Below, one piece after another: positions 19,096 through 27,899 of a DNA stretch of 35,160 nt; position 1 is the first letter of the stretch, and every line of letters begins with the position of its first letter. The DNA is from an uncultured Candidatus Saccharibacteria bacterium (lineage in GTDB: Bacteria; Patescibacteriota; Minisyncoccia; Phycocordibacterales; PALSA-1337). The DNA lies in the NCBI GenBank assembly GCA_964593965.1, contig CAZQKU010000001.1, positions 1-35,160 of the forward strand, in the 5' to 3' direction. A program made the position numbers and the translations under genes. Below the pieces are notes generated by a model, which saw nothing but the letters and a program-made list of their open reading frames with translations, was not told the origin of the DNA and did no database searches.

Positions 19096-19776
19096 ATGAT
19101 GACAATGCAAACAAAAGAAAACAGTACTTTTCTCCGCGGCGTTACCCTGACTCTCGGTACGATCGGTGCAGTGGTGGTGTTTGTCGCATTGCTCTATGCT
19201 ACGATTCCCAATGTTCGGTATGTCCAAGCGGCAACCGCAAGTTCAAGTGTGGTTGTCACCTTGAATGTCACTGCCGGCATTTCCATAACTGCTCCAGGAA
19301 ATGTCACCATGAGTACGCCGATCACTATATCCCAAGCTAGTTCCATTGGTACCACGACATGGACAGTTATCACAAACGATTCGAACGGTTATACTCTTGC
19401 CGTCAATGCTACATCTTCGCCCGCTATGCAATATGGCGCGACAAGCACCATAGCTGACTATCAAACTGGTGCTCCCAATACCTGGGCTGTGGCCGCCTCC
19501 GCCGCCAATTTCGGATATTCGGCTTTTGGTTCTGATGTAGCTTCGACAACATGGGGTACCGATACACTCTGTGGCACTAGCCTCGGTACACCCTCGATGA
19601 ATTTGAAGTACAAAGGTTTTACCACTTCTCCATTTACCATCGCTTCCCGTACGTCTACCACCACTCCTACTGGAATCAGCACTACTGTGTGCTATGCCGC
19701 TCAGCAGGGCACGAGCTTCTTTATTCCTTCAGGGACGTACATTGCTACAATAGTGGCCACAGCTACCAGTCTGTAA
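19096..19776 (+). CDS. Secreted beta-rich protein, WxL-domain-like (divergent; lacks the Trp residues)
   Basis: 226 aa with a signal anchor. TTWTVITNDSNGYTLAVNATSSPAM resembles the V.V.D.RG..GW.L motif of WxL proteins. The C-terminal PSGTYIATIVATATSL resembles the G.Y.A.LTWTL motif. It is a paralogue of the product of 20822-21562. Confidence 0.7.
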   Translation: MMTMQTKENSTFLRGVTLTLGTIGAVVVFVALLYATIPNVRYVQAATASSSVVVTLNVTAGISITAPGNVTMSTPITISQASSIGTTTWTVITNDSNGYTLAVNATSSPAMQYGATSTIADYQTGAPNTWAVAASAANFGYSAFGSDVASTTWGTDTLCGTSLGTPSMNLKYKGFTTSPFTIASRTSTTTPTGISTTVCYAAQQGTSFFIPSGTYIATIVATATSL

Positions 19777-19785
19777 TATATAATC

Positions 19786-20808
19786 ATGAAAAACAAAAAA
19801 AGTATCATTATTTACTTGATGATCCTTGGTGGTACTGTACTTTCTATACCTGTGTATCATGTGTTTGCTCAGACCGTTTCATCGTCGACTGTGACAGTAT
19901 CTACCACACCGTCAAGTCGACCACAAATCACCACTATTTCGGTAGATGTTAAAAATGATTTTATCGTCGAGCCCGGTAAAATAGAGGTTGATGTCAATCC
20001 TGGTGATGTCATAAACAAAGACATCTCCATCACAAGCAGGATAAGTAAATCAACAAAGTTTCTTATTACCACCGAAGACTTCCAGGGATCACAGAGCGAA
20101 GATCAGCCGGTTGTCCTTCTTGGCGACAAATCAAGCCCGTGGTCTTTTAAGGATAATTTAGTGCCTGCAGTGACGAACTTCACCTTGAATCTTGGTGACC
20201 GTATTGATTTACCTGTTACCATCAATGTACCAAAGAATGCCTCTCCCGGAGGTTATCTTGCCGCCGTCATCGTATCGAATGAACCGCAGGTCAATACTGA
20301 TACCAGTTCTGGAGCGACGGGTGCGCGTATCATATCTCGTGTTGCCGTACTCTTTTTTATTCGCGTGTCCGGTCAAGCGTCATCGAGCGGCTATACCGAG
20401 GATTTTCGCATTGCCAACCAACAAGCTATTTATTCACAGACGCCGGATACGTTCAAAATACTTTTCAATGATACAGGAAACATGTATCTCGTTCCGTATG
20501 GAAATATAAACATTACCAACATGGCAGGAAGCAATGTTGGCACCATTCCCGTGAATGCTTTCTTTGCTCTGCCGGATTCTTTGCGATATCTGGATGTCGC
20601 GTGGAATGATAATGGAGCTTTCCGGATCGGCAGATATACCGCAACACTGGAACTCAATCGAGGCTATGGTGGTATCGTCGATACGAAAGTCATTACATTC
20701 TGGATACTTCCATGGAAAATTGTCGGCCCGATACTGGCGGGTATTATTATTCTGGTAGTCCTTGTTTACTTCATATTCTCCAGATTTGAATTCAGACGCA
20801 GAAAATAA
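19786..20808 (+). CDS. DUF916/DUF3324-like (CscA-like) cell-surface protein with a C-terminal TM anchor
   Basis: 340 aa. After a signal peptide come two beta-sandwich-like halves: FIVEPGKIEVDVNPGDVINKDISITS...PGGYLAAVIV and FKILFNDTGNMYLVPYGNINITN...RIGRYTATLEL. A C-terminal TM segment (ILAGIIILVVLVYFIF) follows. The family call rests on architecture and motif resemblance. Confidence 0.75.
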   Translation: MKNKKSIIIYLMILGGTVLSIPVYHVFAQTVSSSTVTVSTTPSSRPQITTISVDVKNDFIVEPGKIEVDVNPGDVINKDISITSRISKSTKFLITTEDFQGSQSEDQPVVLLGDKSSPWSFKDNLVPAVTNFTLNLGDRIDLPVTINVPKNASPGGYLAAVIVSNEPQVNTDTSSGATGARIISRVAVLFFIRVSGQASSSGYTEDFRIANQQAIYSQTPDTFKILFNDTGNMYLVPYGNINITNMAGSNVGTIPVNAFFALPDSLRYLDVAWNDNGAFRIGRYTATLELNRGYGGIVDTKVITFWILPWKIVGPILAGIIILVVLVYFIFSRFEFRRRK

Positions 20809-20821
20809 AGCTAAAAAATAT

Positions 20822-21562
20822 ATGCGCAAAGGGATATTGCTAATTATAAGCATATTGTATATTGTGCCGCTTGCTTCGAGGGCGGCGATGTCGAGTACGG
20901 ATTACAAAATAGGCATTGATTCCGTCAATATGGGAGGGGATTATTCGACGAGTACGTCATATTCTATACAGGATACCGCCGGTGACGTCGCCACGGGTAA
21001 TTCCACCAGTACCAATTACGCTATGAATGCCGGCTACCAGCAAATGTACACGTCGTACATCTCCATAAGTTCATTTTCGACGAACACACTGCCGTCTATG
21101 AGTGGTTTTACCGGCGGTATCGCTACAGGTACCATATCAACCTTGGTCGTGACGGACAATCCGGCAGGTTATTCACTCTCCGTTCAGGCCTCGTCCTCTC
21201 CGGCCCTGACCGATCTGAATGGAGCATCCTTCGCTGACTATGATCCTTCAGGTGGAGCGCCGGATTTTTCTTTTACCATACCAACATCGGCATCGGCTTT
21301 CGGTTTTTCCGTTGTCAGTCCCGATGTTGTCAGCCGATATGACAATAACAATTCTGCATGTAATACCGGTTCAATCAATACCGCCTTTACCTGTTGGGAC
21401 GGTTTCTCCACATCACAAAAAATAATTGCTCAATCATCCTTTTCAAACCAGCCGAATGGTGCCACGACTACCCTCGATTTGGAAGCGGAAATCGGCTCCA
21501 CTCAACTCCAAGACAGTGGAGCATATTCGGCTTCACTCATCTTGACGGCTGTTACGTTATAG
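20822..21562 (+). CDS. Secreted WxL-domain-like protein, second paralogue
   Basis: I chose the ATG at 20822 (MRKGILLIISILYIVPLASRAA signal peptide) rather than the ORF-track start at 20762, which overlaps the upstream gene. TLVVTDNPAGYSLSVQASSSPAL and the C-terminal GAYSASLILTAVTL parallel the 226-aa protein. Confidence 0.7.
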   Translation: MRKGILLIISILYIVPLASRAAMSSTDYKIGIDSVNMGGDYSTSTSYSIQDTAGDVATGNSTSTNYAMNAGYQQMYTSYISISSFSTNTLPSMSGFTGGIATGTISTLVVTDNPAGYSLSVQASSSPALTDLNGASFADYDPSGGAPDFSFTIPTSASAFGFSVVSPDVVSRYDNNNSACNTGSINTAFTCWDGFSTSQKIIAQSSFSNQPNGATTTLDLEAEIGSTQLQDSGAYSASLILTAVTL

Positions 21563-21584
21563 ATAAGTACTCTATAATAGTGGT

Positions 21585-23459
21585 ATGAAAAAGAGAGGTA
21601 TTAATAAGATCTTTATGTGCGGATGTATCTTTTCAGCCGCACTGTTTTTTTCTTATTTCTTATCTTATGTCCTGCCGGACTGTTATCTTACGTATGCCGA
21701 TACACCAGGTAACGCCTCTGTCGTACAACTGATAGTAGTGAGCTCTCAAGCGGTTACTACTGCGGCGCCTGCCGGTGGTGTATATAATGCCGCAGTCGCT
21801 GTTTCATTGACCTGCGTCGATACGGGCGGTGTTGGTTGTGGATCTACATATTACACTACCGACGGCAGTACCCCGACAGCTTCTTCCAGTATATATTTGG
21901 GTCCGATCACCATCTCTGCCAATACCACATTGCGATATTTTTCAACGAATGTAGATGGAGTTTATGGTCTGGTTGGTTCTCAAATATATATCGTTGATAC
22001 TATTCCTCCTGTAACGACGGCACATCCGCCGGGAGGAATCTATAGCACTGCACAATCAGTGACACTCTCATGTACCGACGACAATTCTGGTTGCGATGAG
22101 ACATATTACACCACAGACGGGACTATCCCGACTGCCAGTTCCACCCAATATTCGGTGACAAATCCGATTTTTATCACGTCGATGACCGTTCTCAGATTCT
22201 TCTCCACAGATATTGCAGGGAACAGTGAATCACCTCAGATACAAACATATGTCATCAGTGCATCGACATCTTCACCCCCCGCCGCTCCAAGCACTTCATC
22301 CTCCGGAGGGGGATTTTATCCCGGTAATCAGACATTTATACTCGAGAATCTTGCTGTTCAAACGGCATCGACAAGCATAGTTGTTACGTGGTACACACAT
22401 GAACCGTCTGTCTCTGTTATGTCATGGAATGTGGATGGAATCCTCGGTTCCTCCGGATCTGTGTCGGAGATAAGTTATATCGAGAAACATGTCATATCCG
22501 TCAATAATTTGCAACCGGACGAAGAATATGATGTGACTCTCGAGGCTGTATCGGTGGGTGGATCAGTACTGCATGATTCGTTTTTTGTCCGCACATTACC
22601 GGTATCTTACCCCCCGCCTAATATCACCGATTTTTCTGGGACGTCCTCATTCGGAGGAAATGTCATTCTGACATGGAAAAATCCGTCCATTGCTGATCTC
22701 GATTCTATACTGATTACTCGCGGCACTCGTTTCTTCCCGAGAGACCCAACGGAGGGATATATCGTGTATCAAGGAAAAGGGGAGACGGTGCTTGATCTCA
22801 ATACCACACCGGACAATGAATATTATTACAGTGCTTTCACGGAAAATAGCTCAAAAATATTTTCTTCGGGAGTCGGTATACAATTTTTCCTCGGTCTTTC
22901 AACGTCTTCGATACCAGAGAGTGGAACGTCGCTTTTCGGTGGTACAGTTTCATCTCTTCCTATATCGAGTATCAACGGAATTATTTTTCTTAACAACAAC
23001 ATCGTTCTCACACCGGTGATAACGGAATCTTCGTCGAGCCCATTCATTACTGTGGGTATCAATCCCGATCTGTCACTCTCCGTCATTATTCCCGCATCTA
23101 TCATCCCGCACGATACTGAAGAAATCATCATGAAAGTCTCCGATAAGAACAGCAATGGAGGTAATTTATTTTTCCTCTTTACGAAGATGGATGATGGCTC
23201 ATATCAAACGACGGTACCTGCATATTTCGATTATGAAAGTGCCACGAGTCCATTCATTCTCAGTTTCCTCAGTGTGGGATATGAGGTCAGAGTACATGGA
23301 GTATTTAGTATAGGCACGACAAATACATCACCCCAATCGGCCACGACAACCCACGGAAACGATAATTATTTTCTATTGTATCTCATGATAATTCTTCTGC
23401 TTATCTTATTGATATTCTTTATGACCTTTAAGATATATTCCTCGAAAAAGAATAAGTAA
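21585..23459 (+). CDS. Large TM-anchored surface protein with two chitobiase/hexosaminidase-C-type (Fn3-associated) repeats and FN3-like domains
   Basis: 624 aa. Two repeats are seen: YYTTDGSTPTASSSIYLGPITISANTTLRYFSTN and YYTTDGTIPTASSTQYSVTNPIFITSMTVLRFFSTDIAGN. FN3-like segments follow. A C-terminal TM helix reads LLYLMIILLLILLIFFMTF. TATAAT at 21573-21578 lies 6 nt before the ATG. Confidence 0.8.
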   Translation: MKKRGINKIFMCGCIFSAALFFSYFLSYVLPDCYLTYADTPGNASVVQLIVVSSQAVTTAAPAGGVYNAAVAVSLTCVDTGGVGCGSTYYTTDGSTPTASSSIYLGPITISANTTLRYFSTNVDGVYGLVGSQIYIVDTIPPVTTAHPPGGIYSTAQSVTLSCTDDNSGCDETYYTTDGTIPTASSTQYSVTNPIFITSMTVLRFFSTDIAGNSESPQIQTYVISASTSSPPAAPSTSSSGGGFYPGNQTFILENLAVQTASTSIVVTWYTHEPSVSVMSWNVDGILGSSGSVSEISYIEKHVISVNNLQPDEEYDVTLEAVSVGGSVLHDSFFVRTLPVSYPPPNITDFSGTSSFGGNVILTWKNPSIADLDSILITRGTRFFPRDPTEGYIVYQGKGETVLDLNTTPDNEYYYSAFTENSSKIFSSGVGIQFFLGLSTSSIPESGTSLFGGTVSSLPISSINGIIFLNNNIVLTPVITESSSSPFITVGINPDLSLSVIIPASIIPHDTEEIIMKVSDKNSNGGNLFFLFTKMDDGSYQTTVPAYFDYESATSPFILSFLSVGYEVRVHGVFSIGTTNTSPQSATTTHGNDNYFLLYLMIILLLILLIFFMTFKIYSSKKNK

Positions 23460-23723: not shown

Positions 23724-24122
23724 GTGGCCATATTTAAGGATTATATATCATTGAAGGAAGCAGGACGCATTTCCGGCTATCATCCGGACTATATTGGTGC
23801 GCTTATTCGGTCAAATAAGGTAAAAGGCAAGAAAATAGGTAAGACATGGATGGTCAGTGAAAGTGACGTCAGAACTCATTTTTCCCGAAAGCATTATGCG
23901 CCGATTTCCAGAGGATTTTCCTCCAAAAAGAAACTCTTTTTAGTTCTTTTTATCGTCGTCATGGTAATTGTTATAACTGTCATCGGCATATTTTCATCGT
24001 ATGGCTTTTCTATAAATCCTTCCGATACGGGAATTTCCGCAAAGGCTTCTCCTCAACAGTCTTTGACAGAAACGGTCGAACCACAAAGTACGGATGCGGA
24101 GGTCATGCAAGCCAGTCAATAA
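23724..24122 (+). CDS. Small HTH (MerR/excisionase-like) protein with a single TM helix
   Basis: 132 aa with a GTG start. The HTH reads ISLKEAGRISGYHPDYIGALIRSNKVKGKKIGKTWMVSESDV and the TM helix reads LFLVLFIVVMVIVITVIGIF. Its stop codon is 3 nt before the start of the giant gene. Confidence 0.7.
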   Translation: MAIFKDYISLKEAGRISGYHPDYIGALIRSNKVKGKKIGKTWMVSESDVRTHFSRKHYAPISRGFSSKKKLFLVLFIVVMVIVITVIGIFSSYGFSINPSDTGISAKASPQQSLTETVEPQSTDAEVMQASQ

Positions 24123-24125
24123 CTC

Positions 24126-27100
24126 ATGAAGAATATATATCAAATTCTTCTCATACTCTTCGTCATCACGCTCTCCACCGTTTTTTGTGCCGAAATTTCC
24201 ACCGCTTCCGCGTCGACCAATTTCAATCAAGAAATAAATTATCAAGGACGACTGACGACGCCTCTCGGTGTGGCTGTGGCAAACGGCAGTTATGATGTTC
24301 GTTTCAAGCTCTACACCGTTCCCACCGGCGGTACGCCGATCTGGTCGGAAACGGATTGTTATGCGGCAGTCGGCAGTACGACCAATTGTAATGGTACTGG
24401 TCCCGATAATCGCGCTAGCATGAACAGTGGACTGTTCAGCATTATGCTCGGAAATACGACGCCGTTTACCGGAGTTAATTTCAATCAGACTCTGTATCTG
24501 TCGGTTGAGATCGGCGGAATATCAAGCACGTCTCCGTCATGGGATGGTGAAATGAGTCCGCGCAAACCTCTCGGCGTGGTCCCGGCGGCAATGACTGCCG
24601 CCAGTCTAAATGGTATAAGTGATACTCAATTTTTTCGGAATGATATCACCAACAGCACGTCCTCAAGTAGCGCCTTTTTGAACGTTACCCAGACGGGTAC
24701 GGGCCCCGTCGCTACATTTACAGGTGCGACCACAACGGATATATTTTCCATCTTGTCTAGCGGTAATGTCGGCATCGGCACTACTACTCCCGGTTCAGCT
24801 CTTACTGTCGTCGGTGATACCTTCATCACTGGTAATGCCACCGCTACCAACCTTACTGCCACCGGGACGTTAAACATTTCCGGCTCTACTACCCTCGCCT
24901 CATCATTGAACGGCCTCCTTTTTTCTACCAACGGTCTCGTCTCATCTCTGGCCACTTCATCTATCGCCGTACTAAACGGTCTTACCACTGCCACGAGCCT
25001 TTCTTCCGTCGGTATCCTTACCTCTGGCTCTATCGCCTCTGGCTTCGGTAACATCAACATCGGTACCAATATCTTCACCGGTAATGGATCAGGCTTGACC
25101 AATATCTCCACTTCATCGCTTGTCGGAGTGCTTGCCGTGGCAAACGGCGGTACGGGTCTCTCATCCGTTTCCGCATCGTCATTTTTCTTGACCGATTCTT
25201 CCGGCAATCCGTACACCGGTACGACAACACCAGCCTTCACTCTCGGTGGTACCGTGATGGGGAACAATCAGAATATCACCGGTCTCAGCCTCCTCTCTTC
25301 CACCGGTGGAACATTTACGAATACCACTGCAACCAATGCCACGACAACCAAGTTTGCTGTTATTGGTACCGGAACATCAACCTTCAGTGGCGGTATCATC
25401 GCTACCTGCTTTGCTACGACGACGGGTGGGCAATGTATTACGGGTGGTAGCAGTGGTGGTGTCTCACTTTCCACCACCAACACATGGACCGCTCTCCAAA
25501 CCTTCGGTAACAACATTTCTTTTGGTGGAGCAAGCACATCCATCGCAAGTCTCATATCAGATCAATTCTTGAAGTATAACGGTACAAACTGGATCAATGC
25601 CGCCATTGCTACCTCTGATGTCTCCGGTCTCGGTTCTCTAGCTACCTTAAGCACTGTCAACAATGCTAACTGGTCGGGTACGCCGCTTGCCGTAGGGAAT
25701 GGAGGTACAGGACTCACTTCCGCTTCCACCTCCTCTTTCTTTCTGACCAATGCTTCCGGCAATCCGTACACCGGTACGACAACACCAGCCTTCACTCTCG
25801 GTGGTACCGTGATGGGGAACAATCAGAATATCACCGGTCTCAGCCTCCTCTCTTCCACCGGTGGAACATTTACCAATGCCACAGCCACAAACATTGTTGC
25901 AACAAACGCTTCAACGACGAATGCTACGACGACCAATCTCGCTGTTACCGGCACTGGCACTACAACATTCGGCGGCGGTATCATCGCCACCTGCTTTGCT
26001 ACGACGACGGGGGGAAAGTGCATTACTAGCAGTAGCGGAACCAGTGGCGGAAACGGTACAGTCACCAGTGTCGGCATAACCGTACCAACAGGATTATCAG
26101 TATCGGGTGTACCGATAACAACAGCAGGAACAGCAACGATTACCCTCGCCGGTGGATATGTTATACCCCTGATCGCCTCTACCACTCAATGGGCTTCAGC
26201 ATACGCTTCCACATCAGCACTCAATGCCACAGGTCCTATAACATATAACAAATCAACAGGGACGATTGCATGTGCATCATGCATCACATCAAATCTCATA
26301 TCTTCCGTCTCAAACAGCGACGGTACACTGACTGTCAGTCCAACTACAGGTGCAGTAGTTGCCTCTCTCAATCTCGGCAATGCCAATACGTGGACAGGCA
26401 CGCAACAGTTCAATGGGGGAATAAATTATCCAAATGGAAATACGATGGTGGATTCGTCGAGCAATCTTAATTACCCAGATGGGTCTGGTATGACCGATGG
26501 AACCGGTTTGTATTATGACGATAATTCATCGTATGGATCAAATGAAGGTCTTACTGACAATAGTGGTGATTTGTATTTGAGCGAAATGGGGGGCAGTTTG
26601 ATTGATACGCAGGGTGATTCAGGTGCAAATAATCAATGTTTGAAAGCAATAAATGGCGGAACATGGGGAACTTGTGCGGCTCCGTCATCCGAGAAGTATA
26701 AGAACAACATTCAAAATCTTTCCGCCACGAGTTCTCTCAATATAGTGATGGCTCTGCAACCCGTGTCATTTTATTACAAAAATGACATAAACGGCATCGA
26801 CAACAAGACTGGAGGATACCAGCCGCTTGACCCAACCGAGCAAGGTCAGGAAGTCGGTCTTATCGCCGAGCAGGTCTTGGGAGTAGATCCCGATCTTGTC
26901 AATTTCACGACTTCCACGACTACATTCGAGGGTATAACATATCCGCCCGGCACTCCTGATTCCGTCAGGTATGGAAATGCCGTGGCACAGCTCATTGGCG
27001 CGATTCAAGCTCAACAAAGCCAGATCGATATTGCAACTTCAAGTATTTCTACTCTGGCTTCTACATCCGTCAATCAGAATATATCTCTCTCGTCATTATC

Positions 27101-27899
27101 GGCCCAATTCAGTGCACTTTCCTCGGCGATGGCTTCGACGACTCTGACTCTATCGGTATTGACTTCCACTATCGCTTCCATCGCTTCTACTACTTCTACA
27201 TCTACTATTGTCGCTACTCTTTCTTCATCAACATCATTTATTCAGACGATTGCCAATGCCGTCATCGCTATCCTTCAATCGTCCGGTCACGTCATCCAGT
27301 CGGCGGGGAACTGGACGGTCGGTCAGATCAGCGGAACTTTGGCAATGTTCAATCGAGTACAGACACAAACAGCCGCAGTGACAAATGGTATCGAAATGAC
27401 AGATTTTTCCACAGGCCAGATATGGTGTTTGCGGATAAGCAATGGAAACTGGGACAAGACAAATGGTCAATGTTCGGTACAAACAAGCATAACCACTTCG
27501 ACGACTACCGTTATCACCACAGAAGATATAACCAATTCCAGCTTGAATAGTCCGATTGTTTCCGTACCCGTTATTTCATCCGGTTCAAGCACCAATTCAT
27601 CTGCCGATGCAGTCATATCAGCGTCAACTACCGTTGATACTACTGATACTACATCAATAATTTCTGCAACGACAACTGCAGTAGGCACAGTAGGTACAAC
27701 CACCGATTCACAGACGACTTCCACTCCACCTCCAACCCCTGCTTCTACTACACCGACAAGTATAACGGGTGATGATATCACGGCTCCAGCAAGCGTCACT
27801 GATACTGCAAGTACGAGTGTTAATACTCTTATTGATGTATCTGCCACGGATGCCACTACTGTTGTCACTCCGGCTGTTACGTCTGATCCGGGACAATAA
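24126..27899 (+). CDS. Giant tail-fibre-like surface protein with an internal peptidase S74 (intramolecular chaperone) domain
   Basis: 1257 aa. A signal peptide is followed by INYQGRLT...GSYDVRFKLY...IWSE and by Gly/Thr/Ser-rich beta-repeat modules. The S74-like block SSEKYKNNIQNL...LQPVSFYYKND...EVGLIAEQVLGVDPDLV lies at roughly nt 26685-27010. About 300 further aa follow it, including a Ser/Thr-rich tail. Confidence 0.85.
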   Translation: MKNIYQILLILFVITLSTVFCAEISTASASTNFNQEINYQGRLTTPLGVAVANGSYDVRFKLYTVPTGGTPIWSETDCYAAVGSTTNCNGTGPDNRASMNSGLFSIMLGNTTPFTGVNFNQTLYLSVEIGGISSTSPSWDGEMSPRKPLGVVPAAMTAASLNGISDTQFFRNDITNSTSSSSAFLNVTQTGTGPVATFTGATTTDIFSILSSGNVGIGTTTPGSALTVVGDTFITGNATATNLTATGTLNISGSTTLASSLNGLLFSTNGLVSSLATSSIAVLNGLTTATSLSSVGILTSGSIASGFGNINIGTNIFTGNGSGLTNISTSSLVGVLAVANGGTGLSSVSASSFFLTDSSGNPYTGTTTPAFTLGGTVMGNNQNITGLSLLSSTGGTFTNTTATNATTTKFAVIGTGTSTFSGGIIATCFATTTGGQCITGGSSGGVSLSTTNTWTALQTFGNNISFGGASTSIASLISDQFLKYNGTNWINAAIATSDVSGLGSLATLSTVNNANWSGTPLAVGNGGTGLTSASTSSFFLTNASGNPYTGTTTPAFTLGGTVMGNNQNITGLSLLSSTGGTFTNATATNIVATNASTTNATTTNLAVTGTGTTTFGGGIIATCFATTTGGKCITSSSGTSGGNGTVTSVGITVPTGLSVSGVPITTAGTATITLAGGYVIPLIASTTQWASAYASTSALNATGPITYNKSTGTIACASCITSNLISSVSNSDGTLTVSPTTGAVVASLNLGNANTWTGTQQFNGGINYPNGNTMVDSSSNLNYPDGSGMTDGTGLYYDDNSSYGSNEGLTDNSGDLYLSEMGGSLIDTQGDSGANNQCLKAINGGTWGTCAAPSSEKYKNNIQNLSATSSLNIVMALQPVSFYYKNDINGIDNKTGGYQPLDPTEQGQEVGLIAEQVLGVDPDLVNFTTSTTTFEGITYPPGTPDSVRYGNAVAQLIGAIQAQQSQIDIATSSISTLASTSVNQNISLSSLSAQFSALSSAMASTTLTLSVLTSTIASIASTTSTSTIVATLSSSTSFIQTIANAVIAILQSSGHVIQSAGNWTVGQISGTLAMFNRVQTQTAAVTNGIEMTDFSTGQIWCLRISNGNWDKTNGQCSVQTSITTSTTTVITTEDITNSSLNSPIVSVPVISSGSSTNSSADAVISASTTVDTTDTTSIISATTTAVGTVGTTTDSQTTSTPPPTPASTTPTSITGDDITAPASVTDTASTSVNTLIDVSATDATTVVTPAVTSDPGQ
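25198..25873 (+). repeat. In-gene 555-bp-period direct duplication with a 121-nt perfect core
   Basis: 25198-25318 is identical to 25753-25873. The flanking ~150 nt on each side are similar but diverged. At protein level GNPYTGTTTPAFTLGGTVMGNNQNITGLSLLSSTGGTFTN occurs twice. Confidence 0.9.

Follow-up and report, generated by a model that had tools for sequence, protein, structure and literature searches.

A four-gene Paceibacteria locus with a WxLIP- and Pam-type chaperone, probably an operon for an usher-less donor-strand-exchange pilus

The locus and its conservation

Contig CAZQKU010000001.1 of genome assembly GCA_964593965.1 carries four adjacent genes, here called P1 to P4, which probably form the operon for an usher-less, chaperone-guided donor-strand-exchange pilus of a monoderm bacterium of the candidate phyla radiation (CPR), a member of the Paceibacteria near Candidatus Taylorbacteria. 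The window analysed is the entire 35-kb contig (35,160 nucleotides), and the genome to which it belongs is 0.79 Mb in size and 82.7% complete. The original prediction for this DNA had read the genes as a Csc/WxL-like cell-surface cluster with Trp-less WxL paralogues. The four co-directional, tightly packed open reading frames that it described are present, separated by gaps of 9, 13 and 22 nt (P1/P2, P2/P3 and P3/P4, respectively). They and the features of P2 and P3 are as follows.

19096-19776, + strand: P1, 226 aa, predicted secreted single-domain pilin, proposed major (shaft) subunit
19786-20808, + strand: P2, 340 aa, two-Ig-domain (immunoglobulin-like) chaperone of the DUF916/DUF3324 (WxLIP, ElrE, PamC/D) family
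about 20713-20784, + strand: C-terminal transmembrane (TM) helix of P2
20822-21562, + strand: P3, 246 aa from the ATG, PamT-like N-terminal module and pilin domain, proposed tip/initiator
20888-21046, + strand: N-terminal module of P3, three S-x-N/D-Y repeats ending in GYQQ, common to PamT
21585-23459, + strand: P4, 624 aa, proposed terminator and membrane anchor

An alternative start codon of P3, TTG at 20762, is also possible. The whole genome has one chaperone gene of this type and two pilin genes only.

The order P1-P2-P3-P4 is kept in 61 species-level genomes or loci, with the genes always co-directional, and this recurrence of the four-gene unit is far beyond chance. P1 lies directly upstream of P2 in 52 of the 55 loci that have enough flanking sequence, P3 lies directly downstream of P2 in 54 of 55, and P4 is retained in 46 of 47. 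The upstream flanks vary among the genomes. The nearest species-level locus, with 70% identity, comes from a Candidatus Taylorbacteria metagenome-assembled genome (MAG), and the remaining related loci belong to Nomurabacteria, Paceibacteria and Minisyncoccia. The named homologues are from Patescibacteria MAGs, and the claim of a remote relative of WxL clusters outside the low-GC Gram-positive bacteria is borne out.

Three of the loci (L059, L070 and L081, with chaperones 42-45% identical) are labelled as Burkholderiales, Bdellovibrionales and Saccharofermentanales MAGs, and many further related loci carry the label 'uncultured Candidatus Saccharibacteria'. Such labels probably reflect mistakes in labelling or binning and not real occurrence beyond the Paceibacteria.

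The chaperone and the two small subunits

Two pilus systems are relevant to these proteins. In E. faecalis, the WxL protein ElrD polymerises by donor-strand exchange, as established by cryo-electron microscopy (cryo-EM) and pull-downs; ElrE, a TM-anchored DUF916/DUF3324 protein, is its chaperone, and an LPxTG protein that bears a donor strand terminates the WxL fibre (Sleutel et al. 2026, bioRxiv 10.64898/2026.10.17.759780). In the CPR bacterium Candidatus Mycosynbacter amalyticus, the PamA/PamB filaments have been solved by cryo-EM; PamC/D have been proposed as PapD-like chaperones with a TM anchor, PamT as a tip made of a single domain, and PamR as a TM-anchored terminator of FnIII type that bears an additional strand at its N-terminus (Troman et al. 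2026, PMC13278184). The WxLIP proteins themselves were described by Hassan et al. 2023 (PMC10599100).

P2 and the WxLIP chaperone (DUF916 and DUF3324, the latter PF11797) encoded in the WxL clusters of Bacillota are truly homologous, a relation already supposed in the original prediction from the CscA-like layout and motifs of the 340-aa protein. Alone, P2 has no Pfam match at E<=1, and the NCBIfam scan is empty too. At the level of the family, PF06030 (WxLIP_PGBD, the former DUF916) is matched by 17 of 32 members, and the family profile finds E. faecium WxLIP1 (9i25, 9i1y) among PDB sequences with E=1.5e-9. The AlphaFold2 (AF2) model of P2, with a predicted local distance difference test score (pLDDT) of 86.7, consists of two beta-sandwich domains followed by a C-terminal helix. 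Its best PDB match by Foldseek is 9i25_C, 'WxLIP bound to long WxL', with E=5e-12, and the next matches are CfaA, CsuC, FimC and Caf1M, with E from 1e-10 to 1e-7. The C-terminus of P2 is a hydrophobic helix followed by a basic tail.

Profile-profile comparison extends this relation over the whole protein. Against seven DUF916/DUF3324 proteins encoded by Lactobacillales plasmids in annotated WxL clusters, the P2 family gives 98.6% in hhalign, with E=1.4e-15 over 264 columns that cover both domains plus the TM helix. Because scores of this kind may be raised by signal peptides and TM helices, the comparison was rerun on the ectodomains alone, which gives 96.7%, E=3.7e-10 and a score of 73.8 against a block-shuffled null of 22.4±4.5, with none of 40 null runs equally high. 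A plain hmmsearch with the seven-sequence Bacillota chaperone model does not recover P2, and the relation emerges only in reciprocal profile, profile-profile and structure searches.

P2 is just as much a homologue of the chaperone that serves the Pam pilus in CPR bacteria. BLASTP against the chaperone of a genuine pam operon, whose PamT reaches 295 bits (cut-off 240), aligns both domains at 27% identity over 262 aa (E=7e-25), and hhalign of eight chaperones from true pam operons against the P2 family gives 100% with E=7e-69. The same eight Pam chaperones are in turn related to the Bacillota WxLIPs, at 98.4% over the full length and at 94.3% for the ectodomains alone, where the score of 57.9 compares with a null of 22.6±3.0.

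Some members of the chaperone family depart from the layout of P2. P0091, a homologue of 557 aa, extends beyond the TM helix with another TM segment and with a LytR_C (PF13399) domain. Two chaperone homologues in other CPR genomes (G028:C2:51767-52753 and G385:C2:22139-23071) each contain a single in-frame stop, TGA and TAA, respectively.

P1 and P3 are paralogues, with 34% identity over their C-terminal ~148 residues (E=1e-16), and both contain the two motif blocks that the original prediction had quoted for its pair of small proteins. They are not literally Trp-less. P3 has one Trp and P1 has three, and the three are invariant across the P1 family, for which 145 homologues were gathered. The AF2 model of P1 (pLDDT 85.4) adopts what appears to be a chaperone-usher-type pilin fold; its best PDB matches by Foldseek are nearly all chaperone-usher pilins (CfaB, PapA, PapE, the pilin domain of PapG, FimA and CsuA/B), together with TasA. 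Eight of the 61 loci have P1-type genes in tandem, two or three of them, ahead of the chaperone gene. By analogy with PamA/PamB, these may be alternative shaft pilins.

P3 carries a PamT-type module ahead of its pilin domain. The NCBIfam PamT model (NF058579) matches P3 with E=3.7e-9 over model positions 8-127, at 26.9-34.9 bits against an equivalog cut-off of 240, and hhalign against nine true PamT proteins gives 98.0% (E=2e-13) for this N-terminal module. Since the likeness of the pilin domain is only marginal after the signal-peptide control, the link to PamT is carried by the module alone. BLASTP of P1 against the PamB/E-like pilin is at noise level. In two P3 homologues, P0105 and P0111, an N-terminal Laminin_G_3 domain (lectin-like, concanavalin-like) precedes the SxxY module and pilin domain; the two proteins are on short contigs, so that the N-terminus may be truncated. 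A lectin domain followed by a pilin domain is the layout of the tip adhesins FimH and PapG.

The two small proteins could be divergent WxL proteins that bind peptidoglycan non-covalently, with P2 stabilising a wall complex and no fibre being formed, which is the older sense of a Csc/WxL cluster. The homology of P2 to WxLIP agrees with this, as does the layout of small subunit, chaperone and next subunit that had been noticed in the original prediction; one WxLIP with two small paralogues is the commonest type of WxL cluster (PMC10599100). The best local profile matches are also those that had suggested it, namely GY-x-L-x-V of P1 and P3 with GW-x-L-x-V of WxL proteins, and the C-terminal strand, but these are the only pieces that align and the match is not significant. 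None of 68 members of the P1 and P3 families matches Pfam WxL (PF13731), even at E<=10, and the model has no match anywhere in this 82.7%-complete genome. Direct Pfam and NCBIfam scans of P1-P3 give no WxL, DUF916 or DUF3324, the sole lead being the weak PamT match, and the P1 and P3 family profiles find nothing significant among PDB sequences. Against Bacillota small WxL proteins, the hhalign values for the P1 and P3 profiles are 3.6% and 14%, with a range of 3.6-18% over all trials.

An enlarged WxL profile that includes WxL pilins of CPR bacteria gave a full-length global score of 30.3 against a block-shuffle null of 5.9±4.6, which initially looked significant. With the signal peptides removed, the global score is 8.3 against 6.3±4.1 and the local score 19.0 against 17.7±2.0, both at null level, and the first result is rejected as a signal-peptide artefact. 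The null-level score on the mature regions therefore does not support placing P1 and P3 in the WxL family, and their description as WxL paralogues is not upheld. The WxL profile, unlike those of P1 and P3, is matched by genuine WxL pilins from other CPR genomes. The non-covalent wall mechanism described in the original prediction is itself outdated, since in Bacillota it has been superseded by the pilus model on the basis of cryo-EM and ladders stable in sodium dodecyl sulphate (SDS). A WxL wall complex is thus an improbable reading of the locus.

Donor-strand candidates and the proposed fibre

The most conserved stretch of P1 is a strand at the start of the mature protein, and P4 begins with a strand of the same kind. 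The signal-peptide cleavage of P1, after VQA, and that of P4 were judged by eye from the alignments. The features concerned are as follows.

19231-19278, + strand: mature N-terminal extension of P1, ATASSSVVVTLNVTAG, proposed donor strand
21699-21746, + strand: mature N-terminal strand of P4, DTPGNASVVQLIVVSS, proposed terminating donor strand
about 21768-22244, + strand: CHB_HEX_C_1 repeats of P4, Pfam E=2.5e-33
about 23367-23429, + strand: C-terminal TM segment of P4, hydrophobic helix with basic tail

In the P1 family the mature start (n=71) reads a-t-A-T-D-s-V-V-V-T-L-n-V-t-s-G, with the pattern V-x-V-x-L-x-V-x-x-G, and the key residues are V7 (62/71), V9 (58/71), L11 (68/71), V13 (70/71) and G16 (69/71). 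In the monomer model of P1 this strand is unstructured and of lower confidence. The mature start of the P4 family (n=55) reads q-s-D-G-I-n-V-n-L-g-V-g-G-C, with the pattern I/V-x-V/I-x-L-x-V/I-x-G; position 5 is I/V in 38 of 55 members, position 7 V/I in 50, position 9 L in 54 and position 11 V/I in 53. The two strands have one common hydrophobic register, as expected if both enter one acceptor groove. The V-x-V-x-L-x-V N-terminal strand is absent from P3.

P4 consists of a signal peptide, the donor-like strand, two CHB_HEX_C_1 repeats, a Pro-rich linker, two fn3-like domains and a C-terminal TM helix, with further Pfam matches to Fn3_assoc and, weakly, fn3. Its description as a TM-anchored protein with two Fn3-associated/chitobiase-C repeats was therefore correct. 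In the family as a whole, the strand is followed by a Cys-rich knot, the Pro-rich linker, the fn3-like domains and the TM helix; the CHB_HEX_C_1 repeats are inserted within the knot. Three aligned P4 homologues lack these repeats, which therefore represent an insertion specific to this lineage that makes the stalk longer. No P1/P3-type pilin domain is found in P4, and neither P1-P4 nor the neighbouring fibre protein contains an LP.[TSA]G motif.

Based on these features, we infer polymerisation of P1, the order of the subunits, termination by P4 and an adhesive function. All four proteins would be exported by Sec, P2 remaining membrane-tethered by way of its C-terminal helix. The first Ig domain of P2 would lend a strand to the partial Ig fold in the pilin domains of newly exported P1 and P3. 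P3, with an acceptor domain and no donor strand, would start the fibre and become its distal tip, displaying the SxxY module, and some relatives of P3 would present the lectin-like domain at the tip as well. P1 subunits would then be added at the base of the fibre to form the shaft. P4 has a donor strand and no pilin domain, and therefore would end growth, while its long Ig/fn3 stalk and C-terminal helix would tether the fibre to the cell membrane. The lack of the strand in P3, the lack of a pilin domain in P4 and the common register of P1 and P4 together suggest the order tip P3, repeated shaft P1 and terminator/anchor P4. The fibre, probably thin and anchored in the membrane, is likely to serve contact with host or prey cells, jointly with the tail-fibre-like protein encoded nearby.

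That protein and a small gene ahead of it lie downstream of P4, within a chromosomal setting of housekeeping genes (IF-2, RbfA, cysteine desulfurase and ClpB).

23724-24122, + strand: small HTH_17-like protein with a TM helix, conserved neighbour
24126-27899, + strand: tail-fibre-like protein, 1257 aa, with internal Peptidase_S74, conserved neighbour

The match of the small protein to Pfam HTH_17 (E=2.5e-4) is below the cut-off; single-sequence phmmer finds a small HTH_17/TM protein on the downstream side in 28 of 42 loci. The 1257-aa protein has the Peptidase_S74 tail-fibre chaperone domain (Pfam, E=9e-8), in agreement with the tail-fibre-like adhesin predicted beside the cluster, and its gene is retained in 33 of the 36 loci with enough flank. 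No P1/P3-type pilin domain is found in it. The HTH_17-like gene stops 3 nt ahead of the Peptidase_S74 gene, and the pair trails the pilus genes in most related loci.

Several points weigh against the proposed pilus. The pilin likeness of P1 is at the level of the fold only, since the Foldseek probability reaches 0.99 but with E~1e-2 and TM-scores of 0.3-0.57. The pilin domain has no significant sequence relation to WxL, and against PamT it scores, on its own, about 19 against a null of 14±2.4, with 2-3 of 40 null runs equally high, which is marginal. BLASTP of P4 against the TM-anchored PKD anchor protein of the examined pam operon shows no similarity. The conserved N-terminal strand could be no more than the strand with which the domain begins. 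Scans for promoters and terminators are uninformative, the sites being no more frequent than in shuffled sequences.

It is also conceivable that there is no filament, P1 and P3 being monomeric secreted or wall beta-sandwich proteins (for example, S-layer-associated or glycan-binding) and P2 and P4 scaffolds that hold them or the fibre protein. The fibre gene conserved beside the unit and the weak likeness of the pilin domains to known pilins would fit such an arrangement, and the evidence for polymerisation is indirect. However, the most conserved stretch of P1 is a strand that it shares in register with P4, and this is not easily accounted for unless the two have an acceptor groove in common, and both characterised relatives of the chaperone build fibres, so that an arrangement of monomers seems unlikely.

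A matrix fibre of the TasA/CalY/camelysin type, in which P1 and P3 self-assemble without a chaperone and P2 and P4 are unrelated Ig-domain membrane proteins, is very improbable: the TasA fibre 8aur does appear, at rank 10 with probability 0.44, when the P1 model is compared with known structures, and this family was the alternative that the original prediction itself named as refuting its WxL claim, but nine chaperone-usher pilins rank above it with higher probability, no peptidase M73/TasA Pfam match is found among the 68 family members, and P2, whose gene almost always adjoins the pilin genes, is related by homology to pilus chaperones, either proven or proposed.

Comparison with known pilus systems

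The proposed pilus shares with the classical chaperone-usher pili (Pap, Fim, CFA/I, Csu and Caf1) the fold of the chaperone, the fold of the subunit and the logic of tip, shaft and terminator. Unlike those systems, it has no usher, outer membrane or periplasm, and its chaperone is tethered to the membrane. No protein of the locus matches the Pfam usher or PapD models, so the likeness is one of fold, with no relation detected at the level of sequence. The TasA/CalY fibres of Bacillus resemble it in having donor-strand-joined beta-sandwich subunits in a monoderm, and P1 has a weak structural match to them, but TasA needs no PapD-like chaperone and the match is weaker than that to the chaperone-usher pilins.

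The Pam pilus is closer. It belongs to the same phylum, and its chaperones and P2 are of one family, with the TM helix at the C-terminus. P3 has the PamT-type N-terminal module, and P4, an Ig/fn3 protein anchored by a TM helix, has an additional strand at its N-terminus and is comparable in this layout to the proposed terminator PamR. A tail-fibre-like gene is nearby here, and such a gene is central to the Pam neighbourhood, where the pilins are reported to be exclusive to CPR bacteria (PMC13278184). An attachment apparatus of this general kind has thus been reported for CPR bacteria before, and the suggestion of the original prediction that it might be undescribed for the group is out of date. 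The differences lie mainly in the subunits. PamA and PamB consist of a beta-sandwich N-terminal domain, a linker donor strand and an open-barrel C-terminal domain (PMC13278184), whereas the shaft subunit P1 is a single domain of 226 aa in which the strand is N-terminal rather than in an internal linker. No two-domain PamA/PamB/PamE pilin is present in this genome: tblastn with the PamA-like and PamB/E-like proteins of a true pam operon finds none at E<=1 in the whole genome (82.7% complete). P3 remains far below the PamT cut-off (26.9-34.9 bits against 240), and P4 has no sequence likeness to the anchor of the examined pam operon. The lineage is also different, the Paceibacteria here as against the Saccharimonadia and Microgenomatia in which Pam has been reported.

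The WxL/Csc/Elr pilus resembles the locus in its DUF916+DUF3324+TM chaperone, in the small subunit that precedes the chaperone and in the combination of one chaperone with two small paralogues. P1 has, as do the WxL pilins, an alternating hydrophobic N-terminal strand followed by Gly, and P4 would be a terminator that bears a donor strand. However, P1 and P3 are not Pfam WxL proteins, and no WxL subunit lies within 10 kb of the chaperone. The proposed donor strand of P1 is V-x-V-x-L-x-V without a terminal Phe, in contrast to [S/T]-x-[G/A]-x-[V/I]-x-F in WxL pilins. P4 is anchored by a TM helix and has no LPxTG/sortase motif, and a large adhesin ending in a WxL domain is lacking here. By analogy, the proposed order P3/P1/P4 would parallel both PamT/PamA-B/PamR and ElrA/ElrD/ElrB.

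The chaperone links these two systems, which were published independently in 2026 and each described as restricted to one phylum; the WxL pilus is called confined to Bacillota (bioRxiv 10.64898/2026.10.17.759780), and neither Sleutel et al. nor Troman et al. mentions the other's family. In a sample of 401 Patescibacteria genomes from 320 genera, the P2-family profile matches 199 genomes (162 genera), often in several copies. Among the positives are all eight genomes that encode a true PamT. The Pfam WxL model matches 30 of the 401 genomes, ten of them above its cut-off, and 27 of these 30 are positives as well. In the WxL loci of CPR bacteria, proteins of ~200 aa score 26.9-39.6 bits (WxL cut-off 25) and adjoining chaperones 32.9-43.2 bits on WxLIP_PGBD (cut-off 27.3). 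Loci L020-L025 (genomes G329, G119, G339, G316, G323 and G275) carry small proteins that reach the WxL threshold. A chaperone adjoins in all the WxL loci checked (L020, L022 and L025) and passes the WxLIP_PGBD threshold in L020 and L022.

The chaperones of these loci score 74 bits on the CPR profile and 30 bits on the Bacillota profile, which argues that they are not Bacillota contamination. The pairs of WxL pilin and WxLIP therefore indicate that WxL-type pilus clusters exist in CPR bacteria, contrary to their confinement to Bacillota. Taken with the pam operons and the P1/P3 loci, they show the chaperone family serving at least three pilin types in CPR bacteria, namely WxL, Pam and P1/P3.

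The CPR bacteria are mostly uncultured epibionts that need to attach to a host by means that are largely unknown, and the locus is a compact four-gene candidate attachment fibre for the Paceibacteria, a large branch of the CPR. P2 and P1 would also make a small and tractable system for reconstitution. If the spread of the chaperone over 199 of 401 genomes, its homology to the Bacillota proteins and the CPR pairs of WxL and WxLIP hold, the distribution and evolution of donor-strand-exchange pili would be redrawn. It is somewhat more likely than not that the Pam, WxL/Elr and Paceibacteria pili are branches of one ancient usher-less, single-membrane pilus system, in which one family of membrane-tethered chaperones works with interchangeable pilin types in about half of the Patescibacteria. 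Such a common origin would contradict the statements 'exclusive to CPR' and 'confined to Bacillota' in the two 2026 preprints, and the P1-P4 locus would represent the system in its most minimal form, with a single chaperone, shaft pilin, tip and anchor.

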